This document shows positions 4,050 through 19,957 of a DNA stretch of 20,000 nt, one piece after another. Source of the stretch: an uncultured Clostridia bacterium (GTDB taxonomy: Bacteria; CAYTYR01; UBA6262); the NCBI GenBank assembly GCA_964441745.1, contig CAYTYR010000001.1:239931-259930 (forward strand). The letters run 5' to 3'. A program made the translations under genes and the position numbers. The notes below the pieces were generated by a model. The model was not told the DNA's origin. It worked only from the letters and a program-made list of their open reading frames with translations, and ran no database searches. The number at the start of each line of letters is the position of its first letter. The stretch's first letter is position 1.

Positions 4050-5795
4050 ATGAGTGGCGGGAAGATTGTAAAAGTTTCCGGGCCGCTGGTAATTGCCAGC
4101 GATTTAAATGAGGTTAAAATGTATGATGTCGTCAAGGTTGGGCTGCCCCAATTGATCGGTGAAGTTATCGGCCTTGATGGCAACACTGCTTTTATCCAGG
4201 TATACGAAGAAACCTCCGGGATCGGGCCTGATGAACCGGTAATCAGTACCGGGGCGCCGCTTAGTGTAGAATTAGGACCTGGCTTGATCGGCGGTATCTA
4301 CGATGGTATTCAGCGTCCCTTGACCGTGATCCAGCAAATGAGCGGAAGCTGGATCGCCCGGGGTATTGATATCCCCAAGCTGGACCGGAAAAAGAAATGG
4401 CCTTTCCAGGCTAAAGTAAACAAAGGGGACCAGTTAATTACCGGAGATATCATCGGGACAGTCCAGGAAACAGAACTGGTAGAACAGAAGATCATGGTGC
4501 CTCCAGGTTTGGCCGGAGAAGTGACCATGATCAAATCAGGCGATTTTACTGTGGAAGAAGTGGTGTGTCAATTAAAACAGGATGGACAAAGTATAGATAT
4601 AAAAATGGCTCAACACTGGCCGGTTCGCGCGATGCGCCCGATCAAGGAAAAACTGCCTCCAATCGAGCCTCTAGTAACTGGGCAGAGAGTTATTGATACA
4701 TTTTTCCCGGTAGCTAAAGGCGGCACAGCTTGCATTCCTGGCCCCTTCGGATCCGGTAAGACCGTCGTCCAGCACCAATTGGCCAAATGGGCTGATGCGC
4801 AGATAATTGTTTATGTAGGATGTGGGGAACGCGGCAACGAAATGACCGATGTTTTGCAGGAGTTCCCTAAACTGAAAGATCCACGCAGTGGAGAACCACT
4901 GATCAAAAGAACGGTCTTGATCGCCAATACCAGCAATATGCCAGTTTCCGCGCGTGAAGCCTCGGTTTATACCGGGATAACGATCGCAGAATATTTCCGG
5001 GATATGGGCTATACTGTTGCTTTAATGGCTGATTCTACCAGCCGTTGGGCAGAAGCGCTCAGGGAAATGTCTGGCCGCCTGGAAGAAATGCCCGGCGAAG
5101 AGGGATATCCGGCCTATTTATCGATGAGGCTGGCTGAATTTTATGAACGGGCGGGCAGGGTAAATTGCGCCGGCAGCGAAGAACGCGAAGGAAGCTTATC
5201 CGTGATCGGAGCAGTCAGCCCCCCTGGCGGCGATCTTTCTGACCCAGTGGTCCAAAGCACTCTGCGGGTAGTTAAAGTATTCTGGAGCCTGGAAGATAAG
5301 TTGGCTTACAAACGGCATTTCCCGGCTATTAACTGGCTGAATAGCTATTCTTTATATTTAGATAATATTAGCGCATATCTGGGGAAAAAGATCGGCCCTG
5401 ATTTCCTGGTTTTACGGCGGGAAGCGATCAAACTTTTGCAAGATGAAGCTTCTTTAGAGGAAATTGTGCGTCTAGTCGGTGTGGAATCATTGTCTCCTAA
5501 TGACCGGCTGACTTTGGCTACAGCTAAAAGTATCCGGGAGGATTTCCTGCACCAGATGGCTTTTGACCCGGAAGACACCTATACTTCCTTGCAAAAACAG
5601 CGCCTGTTACTGAAATTAATCATGCATTTCCATTATCTGGCCAAAGAAGGCATTGGCCGTAAACTTAATCTTGATGATATATTGAAAGATAAAGTTAAGG
5701 AAAAAATTGCTAAGGCTAAATATATCCCTGAGAATAATCTAAATGTTTTTGATGAAATATCCAAAGAAATCGATAATGTTTTTAAAGCGGTGTAA
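4050..5795 (+). CDS. ntpA: V/A-type ATPase catalytic subunit A
   Basis: Walker [38 protein letters not shown]. Confidence 0.98.
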
Positions 5796-5863
5796 TTTTT
5801 TAAACAGTCATACCTACTTCTACAACTTTTAACTTACTGCTATCTTTACAAGGAGAAAAAGGC

Positions 5864-7261
5864 ATGTCCAAGGCTAAAGAATATTCAACAGTCACCAGTA
5901 TTACCGGCCCTTTGCTGATGGTCGAGCATACGGCCGGGATAAAGTATAGCGAAATAGCAGAAATAGTCCTGAAAAACGGGGAAGTGCGTCATGGCCGGGT
6001 GCTCGAAATAAATAAGGATAAAGCCCTGGTCCAACTATTTGAAGGTTCGATGGGTTTAAATTTAGCCGACAGCCGGGTTCGTTTTTTAGGCAAAAGCTTG
6101 GAATTGGGAGTCAGCCTGGATATGCTGGGACGGATCTTTAACGGGCTAGGCCAGCCGATCGATAAAGGGCCGAACATTATTCCTGAAATAAAACTGGATA
6201 TTAATGGACAGCCGATCAATCCTTGTGCCCGGGATTATCCAAATGAATTTATCCAGACCGGGATTAGCGCTATTGATGGAATGACTACCCTGGTCCGCGG
6301 TCAGAAACTGCCGATTTTTTCCGCCTCAGGATTGCCGCATAACGAATTAGCGGCACAAATAGCCCGGCAAGCTAAAGTATTAGGCCAGGATGAACAATTT
6401 GCCGTAGTTTTTGGCGCGATGGGCATCACTTTTGAAGAAGCGGATTACTTTATTACTGATTTTAAAAAAACCGGCGCTATTGAACGGGCTGTTTTGTTTA
6501 TGAACCTGGCTGATGATCCGGCGATTGAACGTATTGCCACTCCACGGATGGCGCTGACCTGCGCTGAATACCTGGCTTTTGAAAAAGGCATGCATGTGCT
6601 GGTCATTCTTACCGACATGACTAATTTCTGCGAAGCCTTGCGCCAGATCTCCGCGGCCAGAAAGGAGATCCCCGGCCGCCGTGGTTATCCCGGGTATATG
6701 TATACCGAATTAGCTACTATTTATGAACGGGCCGGCAGGATCATCGGACAGAAAGGATCTATCACCCAGTTCCCGATCCTGACTATGCCGGATGATGATA
6801 AAACCCACCCGATCCCTGACCTAACCGGCTATATTACTGAAGGCCAGGTAATCTTAAGCCGTGAATTACACCGCCGCGGCGTTTACCCGCCAATTGATAT
6901 TCTGCCTTCATTATCACGTCTAAAAGAAAAGGGTATCGGTGAAAACAAAACGAGGGGTGATCATGGCAGTGTTACCAGCCAGATCTTCAGCTCTTATGCC
7001 CGCGGCAAGGAAGTAAAAGAGTTAGCAATAATTTTAGGGGAAGCGGCCTTGTCCGAAACAGATAAGCTCTATGCCAAATTTAGCGATGAATTAGAAGGCT
7101 CCTTTATCAGTCAGAAAGAAAATGATGAACGCAGTATTACGGAGACTCTGGATCTGTGCTGGAAACTTTTACTGCAATTCCCGCGTAATGAATTGAAGCG
7201 GATCAAAGATGCGGATATAGAAAAGTATTTTCTGAAAGGCCAGCAATCCGAGGATAAATAA
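5864..7261 (+). CDS. ntpB: V/A-type ATPase subunit B
   Basis: [42 protein letters not shown]. Confidence 0.98.
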
Positions 7262-7890
7262 TGCGGCTTAATGTCAATCCTACCAGGATGGAACTAATTA
7301 AATTACGCCAGCGGACAGCTATTGCCCGGCGTGGGCATAAGTTATTGAAAGATAAACAAGATGAGCTGATGCGCACTTTTATGGAATTAATTACCAAGCT
7401 TAAAAATAGCCGGCAGGAGGCGGAAAAGGCACTGCAAGAAGCAACCGCCAGCTATATCCTGAATAAAGCGCAAATCGGCGAAAAAACGATTGACCAGCTC
7501 TGGCAGGGGTTAAAAGCAGAGGTAGAAGTGACCTGGAGCTGGGAACCGCTAATGAACTTGAAATTACCGCGTTATCAGGTAGTTGCTAAGGCCCAGGATA
7601 TCAGCTCTGGTTACCTGCAGCCAACCTTTGCCCTGGACCAGATGACTGAACAATATAAAAAACTTCTGGCGCAACTGGCAGCCTTGGCTGAGCAGGAAAA
7701 AGTTATTAAATTGCTAGCTGAAGAAATAGGGAAAACCCGCCGCCGGGTCAATGCCCTGGAATATATTTTGATCCCGAATCTGATAGAAACCATGCGCTAC
7801 ATTAACATGAAGCTCATTGAAAACGAGCGCGGGACAATTACGAGATTGATGAAAATCAAGGATCTAGTTCATAAAAAAGCAGCTACTTAA
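7261..7890 (+). CDS. ntpD: V/A-type ATPase subunit D
   Basis: PTRMEL...RGHKLLKDKQDEL, KTRRRVNALEY; TAATG overlap with subunit B. Confidence 0.97.
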   Translation: MRLNVNPTRMELIKLRQRTAIARRGHKLLKDKQDELMRTFMELITKLKNSRQEAEKALQEATASYILNKAQIGEKTIDQLWQGLKAEVEVTWSWEPLMNLKLPRYQVVAKAQDISSGYLQPTFALDQMTEQYKKLLAQLAALAEQEKVIKLLAEEIGKTRRRVNALEYILIPNLIETMRYINMKLIENERGTITRLMKIKDLVHKKAAT

Positions 7891-9418: not shown

Positions 9419-10093
9419 ATGAGCTTATATGTCGTTGCCACCCCCATCGGTAATTTGGGGGATATTACTTTCAGGGCGATAGAAACCCTGAAAAAAGTCA
9501 ACCTGATCGCGTGTGAAGATACACGGTATACCAGGAAATTGCTAAGCCATTATGATCTTCATACGCCGGTGACCAGCTACTATGAATATAATAAGATAAA
9601 AAAACTTGATTATTTACTTGAGCAATTGATCAGCGGCAAAGATATTGCCCTGGTTTCCGATAGCGGGACTCCCGGGATTTCTGATCCCGGATTCCTGATT
9701 ATCAGCGCAGCGATTAAAAACAAAATACCAGTAATCTCCATCCCCGGGCCGGCCGCGGTCATCAGCGCCTTAGTTACGGCCGGATTACCCACTGACAGTT
9801 TTGTCTTTGAAGGATTTTTGCCGCGTAAAAAAGGAAAGCTGAAAAAAGCCTTAACCGAATTAGCTGCTTTGGAAAGAACCATCGTTTTTTACGAATCTCC
9901 ATATCGTATTACAGCCACGCTTAAAATCATGCAAGAGGCCATCGGTAACCAATATGTAGTAATAGCCAGGGAGCTGACGAAACATTTTGAAGAAGTACTG
10001 CGCGGTGATTTAGCTGCTCTGATCCCCCGCCTGGAAGCACAGCCGCTTAAAGGAGAAGTGGTAGTTTTATTTAATCCTTCTTTTACTAATTGA
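9419..10093 (+). CDS. rsmI: 16S rRNA (cytidine1402-2'-O)-methyltransferase
   Basis: LYVVATPIGNLGDIT, ACEDTR, VSDSGTPGISDPG, FYESPYR, ARELTKHFEE. Confidence 0.97.
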   Translation: MSLYVVATPIGNLGDITFRAIETLKKVNLIACEDTRYTRKLLSHYDLHTPVTSYYEYNKIKKLDYLLEQLISGKDIALVSDSGTPGISDPGFLIISAAIKNKIPVISIPGPAAVISALVTAGLPTDSFVFEGFLPRKKGKLKKALTELAALERTIVFYESPYRITATLKIMQEAIGNQYVVIARELTKHFEEVLRGDLAALIPRLEAQPLKGEVVVLFNPSFTN

Positions 10094-10118
10094 ATCCTGC
10101 CAGCAAACCAGCTATAAT
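10090..10118 (+). promoter_or_regulatory. Putative sigma70 promoter in front of the tRNA-Arg 5' relic
   Basis: TTGAAT (10090-10095), 17-bp spacer, TATAAT (10113-10118); 25 nt upstream of GCGCCCTTAGCTCA. Confidence 0.65.
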
Positions 10119-10143
10119 AAATAAGATTATGTAGTGAAGTGAT

Positions 10144-10265
10144 GCGCCCTTAGCTCATCCGCCAGCGCTAAACATCTTGCCGCTAAACGCGGCTATTCAC
10201 CGCAGCGACAACATAGCTTCGGCGGACAAGGTTGTCTGCCTGCCGACAGGCAGGGAGCGAATGAC
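10144..10265 (+). pseudogene. tRNA-Arg 5' relic disrupted by palindromic inserts
   Basis: GCGCCCTTAGCTCA (10144-10157) equals nt 1-14 of the tRNA at 16668. After hairpin inserts, GAGCGAATGAC (10255-10265) matches GAGCGACTGAC at 10/11. Confidence 0.75.
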
Positions 10266-10417
10266 GGAGTTTACCCGCCGGTAATAGTGGCGGGAAACCG
10301 ATCAAGAAGGATCCGGAAAACCCCGAGAAATAAAGGAATTGATTGATATATAAAGGAAATTCAAAGCCTGCCAGTTTGTACCAATCCGTATGAATTTGCC
10401 TCTTTTTAGCCCTCACA

Positions 10418-10435
10418 TGGACACTTTTTGGACAC
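10418..10435 (+). repeat. TGGACACTTTTTGGACAC, direct repeat copy 1
   Basis: 17/18 identical to 16488-16505; contains two TGGACAC units at 11-bp spacing. Confidence 0.75.
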
Positions 10436-10549
10436 CAAACCGAGCGACTGATTATATAGTCGGATTTTCATCATTTATTGACCGTTGGACACGCTACCTG
10501 AAAAACCATGGTAATCAAAACATTAGTAAGGATGGGTCAAAGGATAAAA

Positions 10550-12490
10550 ATGAAAAGCGAATTTATCAACTGGTTTATTAAAGAAGAAAAATACTTACAG
10601 AATTACCCTTTAGAAACAAATGAATTTGTGAGATTGTGCCAAAGAATGGGTGTTTTTGTAAGCGCAGTTGATCTGGAAGAATATGAGAAATCTAAATTAA
10701 TTTATCCAATATTAAGATTTAATAGGCCCATATATGAAGAAGAGGGGGTTGAGTTCAGAAGAAAAGGGCAAGTCCTTAGGGCACACGCAGATTACGTAAT
10801 AAATGCTGATGAAGAATTCATAAGAAAGTATAAAGAAAAAAAGTATTCTAGTTATAGTTTTGGAGAGCATGAATGGCTGGTAAAATGGGTAGATGCAGGT
10901 TTACTATATGACCCGAGTAAGAGACGCTTTATTCCTTGGGTAAATTTTAAGGCAAAAAGATTAAGTTATGATAATCAGAAAATTTTAAGCTTTTATTCAA
11001 ATTTTCAATTGCTTTGGATTGATTTAATTAAGGAGAAAAGAGCTTTCTTTAAAACAATATACAAAGAAAAGGCCAATGAGCATTTATTAGGAGAAATTAG
11101 AAAATATGATAAATATTTAGAATTCTTGCTTTCAATTCAAAGTGTATATTACCCTTATGCACATTCTGATTCAAGAACAATTAGTATTACTGGAATAGAT
11201 GAAAAGAAATGGCTTCTGAAGAAAAAGGCATTTAACTATAAAAGGATTCTTCAGCTTTCAAATATGAGAGAAAAAGATGTTTTGGAATTATATAGGTTAC
11301 TATCCGAAAAAGCTTTAAGTATCCTTGGTGTTCATACCAGTGATTGGGTATATCTTTGGAAAAGTATTTCCTGGAATAGGAAAGATGAATTAAAAGGACA
11401 AATTAGAAAAGGTATTGAGTACTTCCAATGGGCTGTAATGATAAAAAGAGTTATAGAGGAATATTATAAAAAAGAGATTCCTGATTTGGAGGAGATAAAA
11501 ACTATTTATGGTAGCAATATATTAAAATATATAAAACATGACTTTAATAAGGTAAAAAGCTATCATTTGCAGAAAAAAAGTAGATATTTCGATGATAAAA
11601 ATAATATCGACTATTATCATGACAAATATAAAAGATTGTTTTATCTTTCAAACGATTTCAAGTTAGATTATCAGCCAAAGGTTTTAGTTTTCGTCGAAGG
11701 GGGGACAGAAGAATATATTTTCGCCCGTATATTTAAATGGTATTATGGCTCTCCTGAACATTTAGGTATAAACTTTATCAATTTTAAAGGTGTAGATAAG
11801 CTGCTATCTACTGCTAAAAACATGGAAAGGCTTAGAAAATTTATCATAGGCCTACAAAAGAAATTAAGAAGCAGAGTACTTTCTGACGATGAAAGAAGGG
11901 AATTAAAACAGCTCATAAGAAAGTTTAGAAACTTAGACATAGTGGTTTCTAATTGGACATCTTTTTTGAGTTATAACTTGGAAAAATGGCAAATAATACC
12001 TTTTTTTGTTTCAGATAATGAAGGGGGAATAAAGCATTTTCTGGAAGCTGAAAAGCCAATAAGATTTGCTAATGTAGTATATAATATCCCTCTTAAATGG
12101 AAGTTCTTATGGGGTATTGATAATGATAATAAGCCATTTAAGGGCAGCAGTTTGGAGCTTGCAAATTTTAGCGATGAAGAATTATCAAAATCTATTGGGG
12201 CTATTTTGCATAAAACTATTGATAAATCTCTAATTGAAAGAATAAGAGAAAAGGATACAGGCATAAATAAGATTGACCCTGAGGTTAAAATAAACAAAAT
12301 GAAGATAGTGAAATTACTTTTTGATAATCTATTTATAGAATTTAAAGGCAGGGAAACAGAATTATTAAGAAGGCCAATATTTAATGTTGTTGAAAGAATT
12401 ACTAACTTATCAGTGCTTAATCATCTTCCTGTAGATACAAAGATTGAATTAGAAAATAAAGAGTTTATTAAAAAAGAACTAAATTGTTAG
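10550..12490 (+). CDS. Uncharacterised protein with C-terminal OLD-like TOPRIM motif; candidate defence nuclease
   Basis: AAGGA SD favours ATG 10550 (the ORF track starts at 10508). VLVFVEGGTEEYIF...GINFINFKG...FFVSDNEG resembles OLD-family TOPRIM; very AT-rich. Confidence 0.6.
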   Translation: MKSEFINWFIKEEKYLQNYPLETNEFVRLCQRMGVFVSAVDLEEYEKSKLIYPILRFNRPIYEEEGVEFRRKGQVLRAHADYVINADEEFIRKYKEKKYSSYSFGEHEWLVKWVDAGLLYDPSKRRFIPWVNFKAKRLSYDNQKILSFYSNFQLLWIDLIKEKRAFFKTIYKEKANEHLLGEIRKYDKYLEFLLSIQSVYYPYAHSDSRTISITGIDEKKWLLKKKAFNYKRILQLSNMREKDVLELYRLLSEKALSILGVHTSDWVYLWKSISWNRKDELKGQIRKGIEYFQWAVMIKRVIEEYYKKEIPDLEEIKTIYGSNILKYIKHDFNKVKSYHLQKKSRYFDDKNNIDYYHDKYKRLFYLSNDFKLDYQPKVLVFVEGGTEEYIFARIFKWYYGSPEHLGINFINFKGVDKLLSTAKNMERLRKFIIGLQKKLRSRVLSDDERRELKQLIRKFRNLDIVVSNWTSFLSYNLEKWQIIPFFVSDNEGGIKHFLEAEKPIRFANVVYNIPLKWKFLWGIDNDNKPFKGSSLELANFSDEELSKSIGAILHKTIDKSLIERIREKDTGINKIDPEVKINKMKIVKLLFDNLFIEFKGRETELLRRPIFNVVERITNLSVLNHLPVDTKIELENKEFIKKELNC

Positions 12491-12511
12491 TTATTTGCCC
12501 TATGGATTTTC

Positions 12512-12540
12512 TTGAAGTTTAGCTAAAGAGATGATAAAAT
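12512..12540 (+). promoter_or_regulatory. Putative sigma70 promoter (extended -10) for the AlbA_2 gene
   Basis: TTGAAG, 17-bp spacer, TG-n-TAAAAT. Confidence 0.5.
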
Positions 12541-12567
12541 ACAGCTTAGATAATATTAAGAGGCACT

Positions 12568-13950
12568 ATGACCAAAAAAGAAATTGAAAGTTTACTTAAG
12601 GAAAATGAAAACATTGAACTCAAATCCTCTCTTGCCGTAATGGAGGAAATCATTGAGTCTGTTTCTGCTTTTGCCAATACCAGAGGCGGAAAGATTTTAA
12701 TTGGCGTTGACAATGCGAGTAGAGTTATTGGTTTGCAAATCGGCAAAGGAACGTTAGAAACCCTTGCTAACCGGATCGCCCAAAATACCGATCCTAAAAT
12801 CCATCCGCATATCAGTGTTGAAAAGATAGACGGCAAAGAGATTATAATTATAGAAGTCAAGGAAAGCCTGGACCGGCTTGTTCTTGCTTTTGGCCGTCCT
12901 TTCAAAAGAGTGGGCAAAGCCACGGTTAAGATGAGCAAAGATGAGTACGAGCGGCTGATACTTGAAAAGCACAAAGATAAATTCCAGTTTGATAAGCAGC
13001 TTTGCGAGGAAGCCAAACTTGAAGACATAGACCAAAAAAAGATTAAAACTTATCTTAAATTACGTCAGAAAAACAGAAATATATCCTCGCAAATAAAGAT
13101 GCCGCTTAACCAGTTTTTAGCCAATTTAAAAGCCGTAAGCGGTAAAAAACCCACCAACGCCGGCATTTTATTCTTCGGTAAGAATCCTCTTAACCTTATT
13201 TCTCATGCTCAGCTAAGATTGGTGCGGATCAAAGGAGTAAAGATATACGGCAACATTTTAGACAGGTTGGATTGCGAAGGCACGTTATGGGAAATGGTTG
13301 ATCAGGCTGAGGATTTTCTCAGAAAAAGCATTCGTTTGCTTGGTTTCCGGACCGAGCAGAGTTTTCGGAGAGAGGACAGGTTTGAATATCCCATCAGGGC
13401 GTTAAGGGAAGCCATTATCAATGGCCTGATACACAGAGATTATTTCAATCTGGCTGATGTGAGAGTCTTTATATTCGATGATCGGATTGAAATAGTCAGC
13501 CCCGGGCCCTTTCCCGAAGGAGTAAGCCCTAAAAAACCAGAACATAAACCGGTAAATAAAATTCTTTCAAGCTTGATGTATGATATTGGCTATATCGAAA
13601 AATATGGTTCGGGAATATACTTGGAAAACGAACTCTGCCTCAAGAACAAAAATCCCAAGCCTATTTACGAAATAGATCCCGTTCAAACAAAAGTAATATT
13701 CAAATCGCAGGTTAAGGACATTACCGTGATTGAGATTGATGAAACAATAATGAGCCAAATAAATGAGAGACAGAAAAAAGCGGTGGCATACATTAGAGAA
13801 AGAGGAAGTATAAAAAGAGAAGAATACATTAAGATAAATAATATTTCTCATACTATCGCTTCAAAGGAATTAAAGAACTTAACTAAAAAGAATATCTTTA
13901 AAACAACAGGAAAAGGGAAATACTTAAAATACGAGTTGACGCAAGGTTGA
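12568..13950 (+). CDS. Schlafen/AlbA_2 domain + HATPase_c_4 (RecG-C-like) + winged-helix protein
   Basis: ENENIELKSS, VSAFANTRGGKILIGVD, EYPIRALREAIINGLIHRDY, FDDRIEIVSPG, IEKYGSG, C-terminal NERQKKAV...wHTH. Confidence 0.9.
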   Translation: MTKKEIESLLKENENIELKSSLAVMEEIIESVSAFANTRGGKILIGVDNASRVIGLQIGKGTLETLANRIAQNTDPKIHPHISVEKIDGKEIIIIEVKESLDRLVLAFGRPFKRVGKATVKMSKDEYERLILEKHKDKFQFDKQLCEEAKLEDIDQKKIKTYLKLRQKNRNISSQIKMPLNQFLANLKAVSGKKPTNAGILFFGKNPLNLISHAQLRLVRIKGVKIYGNILDRLDCEGTLWEMVDQAEDFLRKSIRLLGFRTEQSFRREDRFEYPIRALREAIINGLIHRDYFNLADVRVFIFDDRIEIVSPGPFPEGVSPKKPEHKPVNKILSSLMYDIGYIEKYGSGIYLENELCLKNKNPKPIYEIDPVQTKVIFKSQVKDITVIEIDETIMSQINERQKKAVAYIRERGSIKREEYIKINNISHTIASKELKNLTKKNIFKTTGKGKYLKYELTQG

Positions 13951-13967
13951 CGCAAGGTTGACGCAAG
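13935..13967 (+). repeat. Perfect tandem repeat (GTTGACGCAAG)x3
   Basis: Read directly; spans the TGA stop of the AlbA_2 gene. Confidence 0.95.
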
Positions 13968-14043
13968 AAAAAGAAGAGACACAGCTTATCAACTGAGCCA
14001 ATTTCTTGAGACAGAGAACTTTATTATTTAAGGGATAAAAGTT

Positions 14044-14193
14044 ATGCTAAAAGACGAAAATATTCATCAATTAATTTTCAAGCTACAAGCAAAAATAGAA
14101 CATGCAGAAAATATGTCATCCGGAAGCATTGAAGACGAAAGCCAGATTGATGATTTACGCCTCGAGTTTTTAAAAATAGAGGAAGCTATATAA
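14044..14193 (+). pseudogene. 49-codon ORF, possible gene remnant
   Basis: MLKDENIHQLIFKLQAKIEHAENMSSGSIEDESQIDDLRLEFLKIEEAI with AAGGGA upstream; no recognisable family. Confidence 0.3.
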
Positions 14194-14454
14194 AAGAATA
14201 ACATATTTCTATGAGGTTTTGGCCCATACATAGGTGAGATATTAAAAAGGTTGTATGAGTTCTTAATTGGATGCATGTCTGCCAGTTCTCTGATGATAGA
14301 AATATCATTAATACTGGAGGTGAAAACGATGTTAACCGTAACGGCGGGGACAGTGCTCCTGGGGTGACCTGGTGACAAATGTTTCCAATATTACGAAGAG
14401 GACTATATAACTGATTCAATTAATCCCCGTTTTCCTCAAGGTAAAAATTAGGCC

Positions 14455-14490
14455 TTGACATCTTATTTCATATATGATACACTTTTGTCA
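14455..14490 (+). promoter_or_regulatory. Promoter/operator of the AbiE pair
   Basis: TTGACA (14455-14460), 17-bp spacer, TG-n-TACACT (14478-14483). Inverted TGACA...TGTCA brackets the promoter. The predicted leader before ATG 14496 is very short and has no SD. Confidence 0.6.
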
Positions 14491-14495
14491 TAATT

Positions 14496-15134
14496 ATGAA
14501 AAGCAGTAGTAATCTAATTGAACAGTTAAAATCTCTACCGTACTTCAGTAAAAGTACGGTAAAACAGCTTGGTAAGCAGCTTGGGCTTAAAAAGGCTTCG
14601 GTTGATACCTATATCAGCCGTTTTCTCAAGCGTAAAGAGATTATCCAGCTTAAAAAGGGTCTTTATGTCGCCACTGATTTTTACAATAAAAACAGGAGCG
14701 ATATTTCCTATTCGTTTTATCTCGCCAACATCCTGCGGACGCCATCGTATGTAAGCTCTTGGACGGCGCTCCAGTATTATAATTTAACCACCGAATCGAT
14801 CTATACCATAACCTCGATTACCCGAAAGGTCACCCGGACATATAATACAAAGGCAGGAACCTTTGCTTACCAGTCAGTGAAAAAGGAATTATTTTCTGAT
14901 TTTTCCTTGGTTAAAGGATCTCTCGAATCGCCGACAGGGAAATTTGATTTTTTCATCGCGTCTCCCGCCAAGGCGCTTTTTGACCTGCTATATTTTAAAA
15001 AACATCAGTTTCGCGGGGTGCGATTTGAAGATATAGATAGGCTAATTGAAGAAATGCGCATTGATATTGAAGAAATGGACGAAAAAGATCGGAGCGCCTT
15101 TTTTACCATGATCAAGAATTATTTAAAACTATGA
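14496..15134 (+). CDS. Type IV TA antitoxin, AbiEi-like transcriptional regulator
   Basis: N-terminal wHTH with IIQLKKGLY, then PSYVSSWTALQYYNL, ITSIT and IASPAKALFDLLY; ATGA overlap with the toxin gene. Confidence 0.85.
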   Translation: MKSSSNLIEQLKSLPYFSKSTVKQLGKQLGLKKASVDTYISRFLKRKEIIQLKKGLYVATDFYNKNRSDISYSFYLANILRTPSYVSSWTALQYYNLTTESIYTITSITRKVTRTYNTKAGTFAYQSVKKELFSDFSLVKGSLESPTGKFDFFIASPAKALFDLLYFKKHQFRGVRFEDIDRLIEEMRIDIEEMDEKDRSAFFTMIKNYLKL

Positions 15135-16399
15135 GTGAACAGATTCTCGCCACATTAAAAAGAAAGCTCGATGATCTTTCCGCTTATGGCGAAGTTGATG
15201 CGGAAACGAAACGTAACGCCCTTAAAGAAGAGCTGCAGTTTTACGTTCTTAATTTTATTTATCATCACCCGGAGTACGGCAAATGGATTATGTATGGTGG
15301 TTCCGCGCTTCGCATCTGCCATGAACTTGACCGAATGTCGGTTGATTTAGATTTTGAAGTTACGCAGGCGATAACTGAAAAGTTTTTAGAAGAACTGAAA
15401 AAGGAAATTGAAAAGCACTTCGCCAGCACTTACGGTACCGAACCCGATTTTCTCACCATAAAAACAACCACCGGCAGAGGACTCCTTCTTAAATTCCATG
15501 TTGGCAAAGAATTAATCATCGGCCATCCTTCTACGCAAGTACACGTTAAAATTGACCTTAACCATTTTACTGCCCCAAAGACAGTAACTGAGCGCATACC
15601 GATAAATCGCGACCAGTTTTCCTTTGTCATTACCACCTATAATATGTCCGCGCTTATGGCCAGCAAAATTGCCGCGATTTTCCTGCGCGGGACCCGTGGT
15701 GTGGGAGAAGCGGTGTATGAGGAAAAAGGGCGCGATATTTATGACCTTCTCTGGTATATGACTAAAAAAATAATGCCTGACCTTGATTACCTCATCGCCA
15801 AAGGCATTGACGTAAAGGATCCACGAGCGCTTTTTGACAAGCTTACGCTGCAGATGAACAAAGTAAGCGACGTTAATCTCAAACATGATCTCCGGCCGCT
15901 CTTTGTAAATCAGACATATATTGAAAACTGGCTGAAAAACTGGCGGGAAAGCTACTTGCGGCTCCTGGAAGGATATAAAATCACCACAGTGACAACATTG
16001 GAAAGCGTAAGGATACAGCAGGAATTTTATACGGACACTCGTTATTTTGCATATTGGTATAAAACAGAAGATGGAAAATCAGCGCGGATAGTTTATGCTC
16101 TAAGCGACTATTGGATTATGTACGGAGAGGGTGATTTGCCGACGAAAATAAACGATCAAATTATCCAGCTGGTTGCGGATGACATAAAAGATAAGCTTAA
16201 TGACAAAATAAAACAGTATATAACCTTGTTTTATGAAAAATCAGAGGCCTATTTCAAGAAAACAAACAGGATAATGCTTGGCGATAGCATAACCACCAAA
16301 CTTATCAGAATGACGGCTGATAAACTAAACCAGAAGGAGCAGATTGTGCTTAATAGATCTGCTCTGCTTTCCTGCGAGCTGGATGATTTATTGAAATAA
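15131..16399 (+). CDS. AbiEii/AbiGii-family nucleotidyltransferase toxin with C-terminal extension
   Basis: MYGGSALRICHELDRMSVDLDF (Pol-beta NTase), ASKIAA, KGRDIYDLLWY. Confidence 0.9.
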   Translation: MSEQILATLKRKLDDLSAYGEVDAETKRNALKEELQFYVLNFIYHHPEYGKWIMYGGSALRICHELDRMSVDLDFEVTQAITEKFLEELKKEIEKHFASTYGTEPDFLTIKTTTGRGLLLKFHVGKELIIGHPSTQVHVKIDLNHFTAPKTVTERIPINRDQFSFVITTYNMSALMASKIAAIFLRGTRGVGEAVYEEKGRDIYDLLWYMTKKIMPDLDYLIAKGIDVKDPRALFDKLTLQMNKVSDVNLKHDLRPLFVNQTYIENWLKNWRESYLRLLEGYKITTVTTLESVRIQQEFYTDTRYFAYWYKTEDGKSARIVYALSDYWIMYGEGDLPTKINDQIIQLVADDIKDKLNDKIKQYITLFYEKSEAYFKKTNRIMLGDSITTKLIRMTADKLNQKEQIVLNRSALLSCELDDLLK

Positions 16400-16487
16400 G
16401 GGGTTAGCCTGACTTTCCATAGTCAAAGGATGTTAAAATTCTTTTTGACGAAACCGTGAAGTTATGGTATATATCAGTGTTACCTAG

Positions 16488-16505
16488 TGGATACTTTTTG
16501 GACAC
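16488..16505 (+). repeat. TGGATACTTTTTGGACAC, direct repeat copy 2
   Basis: 17/18 identical to 10418-10435; 60 nt upstream of the tRNA-Arg relic. Confidence 0.75.
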
Positions 16506-16565
16506 TAGAGGTAAAAATAGACATCACGGTCAAAAGCTAGATTTGAAATTTCTCTTATATATAAA

Positions 16566-16633
16566 GCGCCCTTAGCTCAGTTTCAGCCTGAGGCTGATCC
16601 GCCTCTGGCGGAGGATTAGAGCGACTGACTACG
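16566..16633 (+). pseudogene. tRNA-Arg(ACG) 5' half with 30-nt double-hairpin insert in the D-loop
   Basis: Removing 16583-16612 leaves GCGCCCTTAGCTCAGTT-GGATTAGAGCGACTGACTACG, identical to nt 1-38 of the tRNA at 16668 and ending exactly at the anticodon. Confidence 0.9.
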
Positions 16634-16667
16634 TTGACACTAGTAATATTCAGAAATGATAACACAT

Positions 16668-16745
16668 GCGCCCTTAGCTCAGTTGGATTAGAGCGACTGA
16701 CTACGAATCAGTAGGCCACAGGTTCGAATCCTGTAGGGCGCGCCA
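16668..16745 (+). tRNA. tRNA-Arg(ACG)
   Basis: Acceptor GCGCCCT/AGGGCGC, anticodon arm ACTGA-CT-ACG-AA-TCAGT, T arm ACAGG-TTCGAAT-CCTGT, encoded CCA. Confidence 0.97.
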
Positions 16746-16868
16746 TTTACTCTCCTAGAATTTATTATTAAGTAAAAAGTAAATGGCCCGCCGACGCTTA
16801 TTGGCGGGCAAACCACAGATTAGGAAAAACAGATTACACAGATTAAAGCAAAATCCGCTAAATATTTT

Positions 16869-17303
16869 ATGGCTGAGGCGCTGAAAGAAGCGAAAAAAGC
16901 AGCGCTTAAAAACGAAGTACCAATAGGCGCTGTAGTAGTGCATAAAAACAAAATAATTGGCCGTGGCCATAACCTCTCGATCAAGAATAACAATCCGACA
17001 GCCCATGCGGAAGTATTAGCCTTAGGGCAGGCAGCAAAAAAGATCAAGAATTATCGTCTCGTAGATGCGGATATGTATGTGACCATAGAACCATGCGCCA
17101 TGTGCGCGGGAGCGATGGTTTGGGCCAGGATCAGGAATTTATATTTCGGAGCCAAGGATGCAAAAGCCGGGGCCTGTGGCAGCGTGTTTAATATTACTAA
17201 TAATAAGAAACTGAATCACCGCATCAATATACATCAGGGTATTCTGGAAGCAGAGAGCCGTCGGCTTATCCAGGAGTTCTTTAAAAAGAAAAGAAAAAAG
17301 TAA
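16869..17303 (+). CDS. tadA: tRNA adenosine(34) deaminase
   Basis: EVPIGAVVV, PTAHAE, YVTIEPCAMCAGA, GAKDAKAGACGS, LNHR. Start position uncertain. Confidence 0.95.
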   Translation: MAEALKEAKKAALKNEVPIGAVVVHKNKIIGRGHNLSIKNNNPTAHAEVLALGQAAKKIKNYRLVDADMYVTIEPCAMCAGAMVWARIRNLYFGAKDAKAGACGSVFNITNNKKLNHRINIHQGILEAESRRLIQEFFKKKRKK

Positions 17304-17304
17304 T

Positions 17305-17421
17305 GGAAGGGTGGCTCCCGATGTTAATCGGGACTCCCTGCGGTCGCGAGATATAGGGTAGAGCCAGTCTCGCCTGTCCTCCGTGTATGAAGCCGAAGGC
17401 TTCAACGGGGGGAAAACTGGT
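17305..17421 (+). pseudogene. tRNA-Ser(CGA) 5' relic 1 with two inserts
   Basis: GGAAGGGTGGC [31-nt insert] CGAG N13 CCAGTCTCG [40-nt insert] AAAACTGGT; the non-insert blocks are collinear with the tRNA at 17547. Confidence 0.85.
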
Positions 17422-17427
17422 CGTGAT

Positions 17428-17531
17428 GGAGGCGTCGCATAGTGGTTGCCCGCCGTAGGCGGGTAACAGTGCATCCGGTATCGCCTGTCCTCCCTGTATT
17501 GAAGTCGAAGACTTCAAGGGAGGGAAAACCG
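17428..17531 (+). pseudogene. tRNA-Ser(CGA)-like 5' relic 2 (different allele) with two inserts
   Basis: GGAGGCGTCGCATAGTGGTT [hairpin] TAACAGTGCATCCGGTATCG [41-nt insert] AAAACCG. D stem GCA/TGC and anticodon arm CGGT-ATCGAAA-ACCG are recoverable. Confidence 0.7.
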
Positions 17532-17546
17532 AAAATAATATGTGTT

Positions 17547-17634
17547 GGAAGGGTGGCCGAGCTGGTCTAAGGCGCCAGTCTCGAAAACTGGTATGGTCGT
17601 AAGGCCATCGTGAGTTCGAATCTCACCCCTTCCG
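17547..17634 (+). tRNA. tRNA-Ser(CGA)
   Basis: Acceptor GGAAGGG/CCCTTCC, G discriminator, anticodon arm CCAGT-CT-CGA-AA-ACTGG, long variable arm, GTGAG-TTCGAAT-CTCAC; CCA not encoded. Confidence 0.95.
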
Positions 17635-17916
17635 TATTAAATAATTAGTCTGGCAAAAAAATTTAATGTTCTTAACCTTGTCTGCTTGTAAAAATGCGTA
17701 TAAGTATAGAGAAGCAAGGGGATGACCCGCCAAAAAGATCGGCGGGCAGGCAGTGAGTTCTTTTAGATGTCCGGCAAAAAAGTGTTTTTTTGCCGGGTCA
17801 ACAAGAGGAAGGGGTTCAGCGAGCCCGTTCTGTGTGGCGAGCGACGACGAAACAGCCCGCCAAAGTTCGTTGGCGGGCCCTTGTGGAGCGAAACGAGCTT
17901 GCGTAGTGAAGCGACT

Positions 17917-18006
17917 GGAGAGATGGCCGAGCGGTTGAAGGCGTACGCCTGGAGAGCGTATGTGGGGGTGACCTCACCCAGGGTTCGAATCCCTGTCTCT
18001 CCGCCA
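17917..18006 (+). tRNA. tRNA-Ser(GGA)
   Basis: Acceptor GGAGAGA/TCTCTCC, anticodon arm TACGC-CT-GGA-GA-GCGTA, long variable arm, CAGGG-TTCGAAT-CCCTG, encoded CCA. Confidence 0.96.
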
Positions 18007-18211
18007 TTACTTCACATTTTTCTCCCCCTGTCTTCAGAAACTCCCCAAACCCCGCTCAAAGGGGCTACCGCCCCTATTGCGTTCGCTCGGCTGATTTGCC
18101 AGCAAATCAAGCCGCCGGCTCACTATTACCCCTTGGGAAGTTTCCCAAAATCTCCAAATGTGAAAAAACGCGGAGCTTTTTAACCGAAATTCGAACTTTC
18201 TTCGAAGAAAA

Positions 18212-18617: not shown

Positions 18618-18833
18618 ATGTTGGCTCAAAACATAAAGAGATTAAGAAAAAAGAAAGGTATTTCACAAGAGAAACTTGCTCGTCTTGCTGACATTTCGTA
18701 TAACACTATAGTAAAAATAGAAGCAGGAAAGGCAAATAATCCAACAATAGACACACTATCCAAAATAGCTGATATTTTCAAGGTTTCAATAGATGAGTTA
18801 TTAGGAAGAAACAACAAGAGAGCTGAAATATAG
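18618..18833 (+). CDS. XRE/Cro-C1 family helix-turn-helix regulator
   Basis: NIKRLRKKKGISQEKLARLADISYNTIVKIEAG..NPTIDTLSKIA. Confidence 0.92.
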   Translation: MLAQNIKRLRKKKGISQEKLARLADISYNTIVKIEAGKANNPTIDTLSKIADIFKVSIDELLGRNNKRAEI

Positions 18834-18874: not shown

Positions 18875-19957
18875 ATGTCGAATCCGGTTTTTGTTTTAGG
18901 AGCAGGTTTTTCAAGGCCAGGGGGTATTCCTGTTCTAAATGAATTCTTTGACGAAGTGAAAAAGCATATAAACGAGGTAAATTCGGACAAAGAACGGAAG
19001 AGATTTGAATATACTCTAAAACTAGAAAATTATATTATTCAAAACAAAATAAAAGAAAGACCAGATATGGAATCAGCGTTTGTTTTTATAGATGATTTAC
19101 AGAAAGAGAAAATACAAAAATTACCCGGGTTTGAAATAACAGTAGAAGAGCTTCGGCGCCATTTTCTTTATACCATTTTTAGAACATTTAGTCTGTGCTG
19201 GATTCATGATAGTCCTCCATATGGACGAGGGAATAAATATAAGGATAAGGGAAAGGAATTTGTAATAAAGCATCTATATAAAAATTACATTTTTAGTCTA
19301 CTTAGGACTAATGCTACAGTGATTACTTTTAATTATGATCTAATAATAGATAATTTATTAATGATGAATGATATTGTTCCAAAATATTCTAATAATAGAG
19401 TTGAATATCTTAATAAAAAAGATATTGAAGATAAAGGTCACAATTTGGAATTTTCTAATAATTTTAAGCTCCTTAAACTTCACGGATCTCTTAATTGGTT
19501 TATATGTAATAAATGTAAAAGAATTTATATTAAAATAGATGTAGAAGATAACTACTCGACAAACGGAGATGATTATACTGCAACTTCAGGGGATATATGC
19601 AAGTGTGGGCAAAGAATGGATTTTATTATTATTCCCCCCGCAGGGGGAAAGTCTAAACCTGAAAAACCAGAGTTTTTAAATAATGCATGGACTATTGCAG
19701 AAGAAGAATTAAAAACTGCTAACGAAATAACATTTATCGGTTATTCATTTCCTCACACCGATGAAAATATTAGAGAATCTTTCCAAAAACTTATTAATGA
19801 GAATAGTTTACTAAAAAGGGTAAGAGTAATCAACAAAGAAATTAATGATGAACTTGTATCAAAATACGAATGTGTGTTTGGAGAAATAAATAAAAGGAAG
19901 ATTGAATATTATCAAACATCTTTTGAAGATTGGATGATTAACTCATTAGGCGATTGA
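18875..19957 (+). CDS. SIR2-like (SIR2_2 type) domain protein with Zn-ribbon insert; candidate antiphage NADase
   Basis: FVLGAGFS, ITFNYDLIID, LKLHGSLNW, CNKC...CKCG, IIPP, FIGYSFPHTD. Confidence 0.85.
   Translation: MSNPVFVLGAGFSRPGGIPVLNEFFDEVKKHINEVNSDKERKRFEYTLKLENYIIQNKIKERPDMESAFVFIDDLQKEKIQKLPGFEITVEELRRHFLYTIFRTFSLCWIHDSPPYGRGNKYKDKGKEFVIKHLYKNYIFSLLRTNATVITFNYDLIIDNLLMMNDIVPKYSNNRVEYLNKKDIEDKGHNLEFSNNFKLLKLHGSLNWFICNKCKRIYIKIDVEDNYSTNGDDYTATSGDICKCGQRMDFIIIPPAGGKSKPEKPEFLNNAWTIAEEELKTANEITFIGYSFPHTDENIRESFQKLINENSLLKRVRVINKEINDELVSKYECVFGEINKRKIEYYQTSFEDWMINSLGD

Follow-up and report, generated by a model that had tools for sequence, protein, structure and literature searches.

We analyzed a 20,000-nt stretch of DNA (the window) lying at the end of contig C1 of the draft genome of an uncultured Clostridia bacterium. 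The genome, G000 in the following, comprises 2.07 Mb in 39 contigs, is 98% complete and has 42 tRNA genes. Of the relatives used for comparison G001 to G005 are congeners, G006 belongs to another genus and G045 is an Ignavibacteriales genome. The host is bacterial (tadA and tmRNA are present). Three intact tRNA genes were called in the window by ARAGORN and Rfam and all three are clean. Upstream of two of them lie interrupted front parts of tRNA genes, here called relics, which were probably left by a selfish element that targets tRNA genes. Rfam gave no match in the relics at E ≤ 1; they are devoid of the T arm and of the 3′ acceptor strand. The tRNA-related features of the window are the following.

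10090-10118, + strand: promoter-like sequence P0, TTGAAT-17-TATAAT, agreeing with the consensus at 10/12 positions; the native tRNA-Arg promoter, now facing relic A
10144-10265, + strand: Arg relic A, made up of tRNA-Arg(ACG) 1-14, inserts, and GAGCGAaTGAC (3′ strand of the D stem and 5′ strand of the anticodon stem)
10442-10454, + strand: possible fifth scrap, GAGCGACTGATTA, 10 nt of which equal tRNA-Arg 22-31; junction of a 4-kb cassette missing from G001
16566-16633, + strand: Arg relic B, made up of tRNA 1-17, the double hairpin TCAGCCtgaGGCTGA + TCCGCCtctGGCGGA (16583-16612), and tRNA 18-38
16634-16667, + strand: spacer P1, 34 nt, TTGACA-18 nt-GATAAC, between relic B and the intact tRNA-Arg
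16668-16745, + strand: intact tRNA-Arg(ACG) (ARAGORN, Rfam; 70.9 bits)
16869-17303, + strand: gene of a tadA-like tRNA adenosine deaminase, with a stop codon that indicates where tRNA-Ser(CGA) originally lay
17305-17425, + strand: Ser relic 1 (alpha body), made up of tRNA-Ser(CGA) 1-11, a TCCCGA hairpin (17316-17333), a D-arm remnant, the anticodon stem with an insert, and then AAAACTGGT
17428-17531, + strand: Ser relic 2 (beta body), made up of positions 1-21, a CCCGCC hairpin (17449-17463), and the anticodon stem with the same kind of 40-nt hairpin (17484-17525)
17546-17635, + strand: intact tRNA-Ser(CGA), alpha body, identical to the gene of G003 and G004 (ARAGORN, Rfam; 58.6 bits)
17917-18006: intact tRNA-Ser(GGA) (ARAGORN, Rfam; 58.2 bits)

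Arg relic A carries two inserts, the long palindrome TCCGCC...GGCGGA (10158-10226) and the hairpin CTGCCTGCC...GGCAGG (10236-10254). Its identity to the tRNA is confined to 14/14 nt (tRNA 1-14), which by itself gives a BLAST E value of 0.42; the relic could be identified because the orthologous relics of G001 and G002 occupy the same place after rsmI. Relic B is recognized directly: it matches the gene at 17/17 nt (16566-16582; E 0.007) and at 21/21 nt (16613-16633; E 2.8e-5) and is 94% identical to the relic-plus-tRNA unit of G003. Its insert is a 30-nt double hairpin, TCAGCC-tga-GGCTGA followed by TCCGCC-tct-GGCGGA. The spacer P1 downstream of it has homologues in G002 and G003 and is absent in G004. 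The G002 copy reads, by eye, TTGACA-18-GATAAT; P1 was not called by a consensus promoter scan of G000.

In Ser relic 1 a 40-nt hairpin (17373-17412) is inserted between anticodon positions 35 and 36 and is followed by the 3′ anticodon stem. Ser relic 2 has a different body from the adjacent gene. It agrees at 20/21 positions with tRNA-Ser(TGA) 1-21 and matches the intact tRNA-Ser(CGA) of G006. Two relics with the same anticodon-loop hairpin precede tRNA-Ser(TGA) elsewhere in G000, and G003 has one such tRNA-Ser(TGA) relic. Among nine genomes of the class which we scanned, the exact pattern of this hairpin occurred only in G000, G003 and G006.

The comparison of the two loci across relatives, which had been proposed as a check, is informative about which copy is the older one. 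At the Arg locus P0 follows rsmI in all species. In G004 it is followed by a clean tRNA-Arg without any relic, in G002 and G003 by a single double-hairpin relic, the 34-nt spacer and the intact gene, and in G000 and G001 by a relic and then an island. At the Ser locus of G003 and G004 the intact tRNA-Ser(CGA) starts 2 nt past the tadA stop codon, which is the very base at which Ser relic 1 begins in G000; the intact gene of G000, identical in sequence to that of G003 and G004, lies 240 nt beyond this native start. The presence of relics thus varies among species of one genus at both loci. Because sister species have intact genes exactly where the relics sit in G000, the Arg and Ser relics are most likely the displaced fronts of the original tRNA genes at their native positions, and the working copies downstream are the newer ones. 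The order of the bodies at the Ser(CGA) locus is fragment, alpha relic, beta intact in G006 and alpha relic, beta relic, alpha intact in G000, and the two tRNA-Ser(CGA) bodies have therefore replaced each other.

With these comparisons several claims of the original prediction, which had been made from the window sequence alone, can be judged. The four relics upstream of clean intact tRNAs are real by ARAGORN, Rfam, BLAST and the sister loci, and its idea that a 5′ part had been displaced and a new 5′ part or whole copy supplied downstream agrees with the native positions in the sister species. The fifth scrap is less certain: it matches the tRNA at 10/10 nt and sits exactly where the islands of G000 and G001 diverge, but its E value of 0.18 is not significant alone. 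The prediction had every relic upstream of an intact isoacceptor; Ser relic 2 has a different tRNA-Ser body. It also placed the break near the anticodon throughout, whereas the marker of the double-hairpin class lies at position 17/18 and the homology of its relics ends anywhere from position 22 to 55.

We followed the double hairpin of relic B into other genomes. Among 41 relatives it occurred throughout the genus (6/6 genomes) and in G008, and a control with the reversed pattern gave 0 matches; G021 had two further matches with a mismatch, one of them in apparent coding sequence. The exact pattern AGCTCAGTT plus double hairpin occurred at 23 loci in species genomes and at 20 in metagenome contigs, with 45 instances in total. 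The species-genome records are labelled Omnitrophota, five groups of the candidate phyla radiation (CPR), Ignavibacteria, Bacteroidetes, Elusimicrobia and others. An intact tRNA gene follows on the same strand in 36/45 instances (locus L086 being doubtful), 32-417 nt and mostly 64-125 nt past the start of the relic. Of the nine without a downstream tRNA, seven had ≤143 nt of contig left, and in the other two no tRNA followed within 900-2500 nt. The tRNAs, of at least 13 species, are those for Val, Ala, Arg, Thr, Ile, Met, Gly, Pro and Asp. The insertion site is D-loop position 17/18. In 33/33 listed units the loop of the first hairpin has A as its last letter and the loop of the second has T as its first, which makes the pair mirror images on opposite strands.

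In some relics a gene of a small GIY-YIG nuclease accompanies the hairpins. At loci L026 and L037 an open reading frame (ORF) of ~85 aa with the GIY-YIG domain (PF01541) fills the gap between relic and tRNA, and in L026 it overlaps the first 25 nt of the tRNA. The tRNA-Arg(TCT) locus of G003 has a GIY-YIG ORF between relic and tRNA, and its tRNA-His locus shows the mirror order of intact gene, GIY-YIG ORF and hairpin-bearing pseudo-tRNA. A pair of inserts, the double hairpin at 17/18 and a CCTGCC hairpin at 22/23, occurs in these two ORF-bearing relics of G003 and likewise in ORF-less ones (G002 Arg, relic A of G000, L031). In nine genomes of the class 12/19 small GIY-YIG ORFs sit 20-200 nt from a tRNA gene on the same strand; the other seven form the best-scoring, housekeeping-like group. 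Fragments of tRNA flank 7/11 inspected tRNA-adjacent loci, including the Cys locus in 4/4 genomes. Homologues were also found in five genomes of other lineages, where 8/9 loci (E ≤ 2.6e-12) abut a tRNA on the same strand, and all seven of the loci inspected in full come after a hairpin-interrupted 5′ relic of that tRNA. In G045 four identical 326-nt units, each consisting of tRNA-Ser(GGA) 1-21, the double hairpin, positions 22-30 and the GIY-YIG gene, precede an intact tRNA-Ser(GGA). The proteins of ~80-90 aa match only the catalytic domain of GIY-YIG nucleases, with weak matches to homing-endonuclease families of phages. GIY-YIG had been among the enzymes suggested by the original prediction, and by its association with the complete relatives it is the best candidate for the responsible enzyme. 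Whole-genome searches placed no match to an integrase, GIY-YIG nuclease, Y1 transposase, reverse transcriptase or serine recombinase inside the window, in which the prediction had likewise seen no responsible enzyme.

With a confidence only a little above even we hold that the relics are dead front parts left by a tRNA-targeting selfish element, kin in kind to the free-standing GIY-YIG homing endonucleases, which supplied a working copy downstream. Such an element would break the resident tRNA gene and be copied in by repair. Behind the native promoter the old 5′ part would remain, put out of action by the hairpin, and the hairpin would at the same time abolish the target. The element would end with a fresh tRNA start, either a new 5′ part or a whole gene, and regenerate a working gene a few tens of bases downstream, so that tRNA production would continue, presumably via RNase P cutting the tRNA from a longer transcript. 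What appear to be complete members of the family, in the congener and in other phyla, have the ~85-aa GIY-YIG gene between relic and regenerated tRNA, and in tRNAs with the D loop AGCTCAGTTGG the relic is marked by the conserved 30-nt double hairpin at 17/18. Stacks of relics would arise because the regenerated gene again carries the target and repeated cutting with misaligned repair adds units. From the place of the nuclease gene in these units we infer that the nuclease may make the break and that its repair may create the duplication. The copies in the window would be ORF-less remains, which either once carried the ORF and decayed or were made in trans, and the relics have been colonised further by the GC-rich hairpins of the genome, which resemble repetitive extragenic palindromes (REP).

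A bolder and more doubtful extension, which we offer tentatively, is that these loci represent an undescribed selfish element spread across phyla that behaves as a DNA-level pseudo-intron of tRNA genes. The ~85-aa nuclease would ride in the tRNA transcription unit and use the tRNA promoter, with RNase P freeing the tRNA. The double hairpin would be both a cis-acting end and a mark of immunity, and its mini-hairpin C-NNA-G on each strand would suggest that a structure-specific nuclease recognizes DNA in single-stranded or cruciform form. Stacks would be a fossil record of repeated self-homing, and relics would then offer safe landing pads for defence islands. Full-text searches of the literature outside subscription journals and supplements gave no description of small GIY-YIG genes embedded in bacterial tRNA genes, of the double hairpin or of stacked 5′ relics. 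If the proposal is true, many tRNA pseudogenes or partial tRNA matches upstream of tRNA genes in uncultivated bacteria would be footprints of one element family and neither noise nor assembly errors; the affected contigs are labelled as CPR groups, Omnitrophota, Ignavibacteria and an Elusimicrobia-labelled clade. It would be a third way, besides self-splicing introns and the attachment-site (att) duplication of integrases, for a selfish gene to occupy an essential RNA gene without death of the host. It would also provide a naturally minimal and possibly useful GIY-YIG nuclease whose DNA target, the best-conserved part of tRNA genes, seems well defined, and would tie the turnover of tRNA genes to the build-up of defence islands at tRNA loci.

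A number of observations weigh against the proposal of a nuclease-borne selfish element. The window contains no GIY-YIG gene, and none of the congeners examined has one at its Arg(ACG) or Ser(CGA) locus; a GIY-YIG ORF lies within reach in just 4/45 double-hairpin relics. G008 has the double hairpin without a small GIY-YIG gene, while the tRNA-adjacent GIY-YIG genes at L058, L054, L070 and L066 are without a detectable relic. The double hairpin was away from tRNAs in 8/12 inspected loci of the genus and class, and 10/10 viral contigs with it had no tRNA called from 300 nt before to 500 nt after it, so that it may be an independent mobile unit. The Ser relics bear the other insert, the anticodon-loop hairpin, for which no ORF-bearing relative was found among nine class genomes, and the alternation of alpha and beta bodies needs replacement of the whole gene, which simple re-supply of a 5′ part does not give. 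Finally, a protein of 85 aa has no DNA-binding domain, which leaves its target finding unexplained.

The hairpins themselves are a genome-wide population. The commonest perfect 6-bp stems in G000 are TCCGCC (66), CCCGCC (55) and CCTGCC (34); altogether 176 hairpins of six stem families were counted, 142 of them in non-ORF DNA. They sit in intergenic mosaics with short AT-rich motifs, in the manner of REP arrays and bacterial interspersed mosaic elements (BIME). Their density is 15.4 per kb in relics (19 in 12 intervals, 1235 nt, the intervals having been drawn after the relics had been seen) versus 0.51 per kb in the other 276 kb of DNA without long ORFs, a roughly 30-fold difference. A separate population of micro-palindromes colonising the relics had been foreseen by the original prediction, and the equal density everywhere that would have spoken against it is not seen. 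Two candidate agents were considered and rejected, the first as mobiliser of the hairpins. G000 has eight Y1_Tnp genes, the transposase type of RAYT (REP-associated tyrosine transposase), and none has hairpins within ~1.2 kb; moreover, the distribution of Y1_Tnp in the class does not fit that of the double hairpin (G008 has the hairpin without Y1_Tnp and G006 has Y1_Tnp without the hairpin). A reverse-transcriptase origin was dismissed as the 98% complete genome contains no RVT_1 match. Four double-hairpin relics are present in G000, all with a ..CA(A/G)TT D loop; another six tRNAs with this loop are intact and lack a relic. One contig of an independent sediment run (X3) has 30 other letters in place of the 82-nt REP-rich spacer 16748-16831 after tRNA-Arg; hairpin spacers therefore differ between populations. 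Orthologous intergenic spacers of G003 and G000 contain entirely different repeat modules.

A BLAST search of all 42 tRNAs against the G000 genome revealed further 5′ relics upstream of Ser(TGA) (the two mentioned above), Arg(CCG), Val(GAC), Thr(CGT) and Cys. On the downstream side, 3′ or internal fragments accompany Glu(CTC) (two copies), Asp, Leu(CAA), Gly(CCC), Cys and Pro(CGG). The usual scar of integration into a tRNA gene is a 3′ fragment. The reverse geometry that had been predicted is thus seen in the upstream 5′ relics but is not exclusive in this genome. A seemingly clean relic at C10:36223-36245 was rejected, being the 5′ exon of a tRNA-Arg(TCT) gene with an intron. This gene (G000:C10:36000-36260; L139:379-575, minus strand) has a group I intron of ~230 nt in its anticodon loop (RF00028, 47.5 bits, E 5.5e-10, slightly below the gathering score of 50), and ARAGORN misses it because the intron interrupts the gene. 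The congener G003 has no intron in Arg(TCT) and instead the relic plus GIY-YIG element. At G000:C5:35568-36140 (L067/L140) a pseudo-tRNA-Cys with three hairpins, a GIY-YIG ORF, the intact tRNA-Cys and a second pseudo-tRNA-Cys stand in a row; the end of the ORF contains 13 nt that form a perfect inverted copy of the 3′ end of tRNA-Cys (E 0.002), as likewise in G003 and G005. Downstream of tRNA-Glu(CTC) (G000:C1:87814-87941) there are two extra 64-nt units. Each is composed of the final 19 nt of the tRNA, 24 nt of the flank downstream and a TCCGCC hairpin; this resembles an insertion of a hairpin that duplicated a 36-nt target and was repeated. A repeat of ~110 nt resembling a miniature inverted-repeat transposable element (MITE), with the terminal inverted repeats AACACCCCAAGGGG...CCCCTTTGAGCGGGGTTTGGGGTGTT, is found at 18030-18140 of the window and at C10:26330-26430, C28:10003-10110, C3:34220-34330 and C34:6430-6540; the window copy comes after tRNA-Ser(GGA), and one of the others before the Arg(CCG) relic.

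Relics A and B bracket a defence island of 6.3 kb with a GC content down to 29%, in which a Pfam scan of the ORFs found no recombinase. The island sits in the relic and not in the working tRNA gene.

10266-10441, + strand: left-end module of the island, common to G001, with a CCCGCC hairpin (10274-10294) and ending in the motif TGGACACTTTTTGGACAC (10418-10435)
10508-12490, + strand: OLD-like TOPRIM ORF
12568-13950, + strand: Schlafen AlbA_2/HATPase_c_4 ORF
14496-15134, + strand: AbiEi-like ORF
15131-16399, + strand: AbiEii ORF
16488-16505, + strand: second copy of the motif TGGAyACTTTTTGGACAC near the right end of the island, 17/18 identical to 10418-10435

The alignment with the G001 locus runs to 10441 and picks up again at 14450. 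G001 has the same left junction and, of the island, the AbiE part alone; the 4 kb that G000 has in addition start right after the 18-nt motif that recurs near the right end. The island may have arrived by recombination between relic copies, and the Arg loci of G002 and G003 look like the state after loss or before arrival of the island. Upstream of the relics the genes of V/A-type ATPase subunits A, B and D (window 4050-7890) are ordinary context of the lineage. After tRNA-Ser(GGA), the segment 18480-20000 with a GC content of 27-31%, a 71-aa ORF (18618-18833) and an ORF with a SIR2_2 domain (18875-19957) probably forms a further defence island, which runs past the end of the contig. On the 3′ side of tRNA-Ser(TGA) (G000:C1:204350-213360, L142) there is a large serine recombinase of 441 aa (Resolvase, Recombinase and Zn ribbon) beside a type I restriction-modification system (HsdM, HsdS) and a SIR2_2/HerA pair; the relic stack is on the 5′ side of this tRNA. 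As a maker of the relics this recombinase was rejected: it is a single gene on the 3′ side of Ser(TGA) while the relics are 5′. Genome-wide there are three tyrosine (PF00589) and one serine (PF00239) recombinase genes, all outside the window.

Could the relics have arisen without any nuclease? A second tRNA copy might have been gained by local duplication or horizontally, and REP-like hairpins might then have inserted into the dispensable copy, which decayed, the GIY-YIG genes being unrelated passengers that favour the neighbourhood of tRNAs. We think this unlikely, although it accommodates much: the abundance of the hairpins throughout the genome, the double hairpins outside tRNA contexts in congeners and in the ten viral contigs, the scarcity of GIY-YIG ORFs near double-hairpin relics, and the six intact ..CA(A/G)TT tRNAs without a relic, as expected if only spare copies tolerate insertion. 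A tandem duplication that includes the upstream flank was rejected: the spacers do not copy it, flank similarity is low in 31/32 units, and the sole exception, L036, is a further stacked unit. Also against this reading are the stereotyped layout (relic always upstream and on the same strand, unit mostly 64-125 nt), the recurrence of one pair of inserts, identically placed, in unrelated tRNAs and the eight Y1-transposase genes of G000 that are not flanked by hairpins. The island suggests a different origin, in which the relics would be att-type direct repeats of islands mobilised by an integrase with its site in the 5′ half of the tRNA, short pairs being islands with a deleted interior. Parts of the tRNA gene do bracket the low-GC defence island, its left junction is common to G001, the 18-nt motif lies near both of its ends, and tRNA loci are island hot spots in G000, as the recombinase island at Ser(TGA) and the SIR2_2 segment after Ser(GGA) illustrate. 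We nevertheless judge this origin distinctly improbable, with no recombinase in island or window and the three tyrosine and one serine recombinase genes all elsewhere, the serine recombinase at Ser(TGA) lying 3′ of the tRNA and the relics 5′; furthermore, the spacers of the Ser stack and of the relic B-P1-tRNA unit are just 14-34 nt, and in 32 units of other lineages the spacers measure 3-261 nt without any trace of an island.

The original prediction had considered as well that the relics are expressed decoy or guide RNAs. As functional RNAs they could be tRNA-like leaders, decoys or guides co-transcribed with the tRNA, a role that we regard as very unlikely. The stems of the Ser insert are kept through compensatory changes (4/20 pairs changed on both sides in six copies from three species), the Ser relics fold much better than shuffled sequences (z -3.3 for relic 1 and -4.5 for relic 2), and they end 14-20 nt before the next unit, so that they are probably co-transcribed with the tRNA. 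Mobile palindromes keep their palindromy too, however, which makes the compensatory changes non-discriminating; the stems of the double hairpin are invariant and do not covary, and relic B folds no better than its shuffles (z -1.05). In addition, congeners whose loci are otherwise identical lack the relics (G004 at Arg, G003 and G004 at Ser), and the truncation points vary, the homology ending between positions 22 and 55. The idea of decoys or guides thus finds no support. That the whole arrangement is an artefact of a metagenome-assembled genome can be set aside almost entirely. The genome is a draft of 39 contigs, and the sole contig break in an independent assembly falls within the repeated double hairpin, with no single contig bridging it. 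But Logan contigs from two runs, possibly the source samples themselves, which were made with a different assembler, match 9900-16602 and 16585-17900 with 0 differences, and the same architecture recurs in other species of the genus and at 43 loci of unrelated assemblies.

The selfish element proposed here can be compared with several known systems. The split and permuted tRNA genes of Archaea and algae likewise include stand-alone 5′ halves that end near the anticodon, but here an intact gene is always adjacent, the host is bacterial, and the BLAST search with the 42 tRNAs detected no isolated 3′ half of Arg(ACG) or of Ser(CGA). Group I introns of bacterial tRNA anticodon loops, in some cases with a homing endonuclease gene of their own, are also selfish insertions that spare tRNA production, and G000 itself has one in Arg(TCT). 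In contrast to these, the relics contain no ribozyme, and function is kept by a duplicate at the DNA level and not by splicing. Like REP, BIME and REPIN (REP doublet) sequences, the hairpins are short GC-rich intergenic palindromes in many dispersed copies, often in mosaics with short AT-rich motifs, and the double hairpin resembles two related units on opposite strands; unlike in REP/RAYT systems, the Y1 genes are not flanked by the palindromes, and the double hairpin is conserved in bacteria labelled as several phyla, occurs in viral contigs and has a precise site in the tRNA D loop. With the islands and prophages that tyrosine integrases insert into tRNA genes our loci share the target, partial copies flanking the inserted DNA, a restored tRNA and an island between partial copies. 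They differ in that the repeated part is the 5′ one, the relic lies upstream, the island has no integrase and most units are free of islands.

The closest parallel is the phage endonuclease SegB, which is much longer than ~85 aa and has a DNA-binding part. SegB of T4 and T6 is a free-standing GIY-YIG homing endonuclease encoded in the tRNA gene cluster of the phage (PMC13096335; PMC2330249). The T6 enzyme cuts inside tRNA genes and drives tandem 718-bp repeats of tRNA-Tyr plus segB, with microhomology shared by the tRNA's 5′ end and the nuclease gene's 3′ end (PMC13096335). It provides an experimental precedent for the proposed mechanism. Whereas SegB is a phage enzyme and treated there as site-specific, the proteins of ~80-90 aa described here are essentially the catalytic domain alone and are chromosomal in several labelled phyla. 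Their genes lie between a disabled 5′ copy, with its conserved double hairpin, and the working tRNA. Measured as free-standing homing endonuclease elements, the loci of the window lack the nuclease gene, which is present beside a tRNA gene in the complete relatives; the Arg and Ser relics are found in some congeners and missing from others. As with SegB, the complete relatives have a GIY-YIG gene among tRNA genes and tandem units of tRNA plus nuclease.

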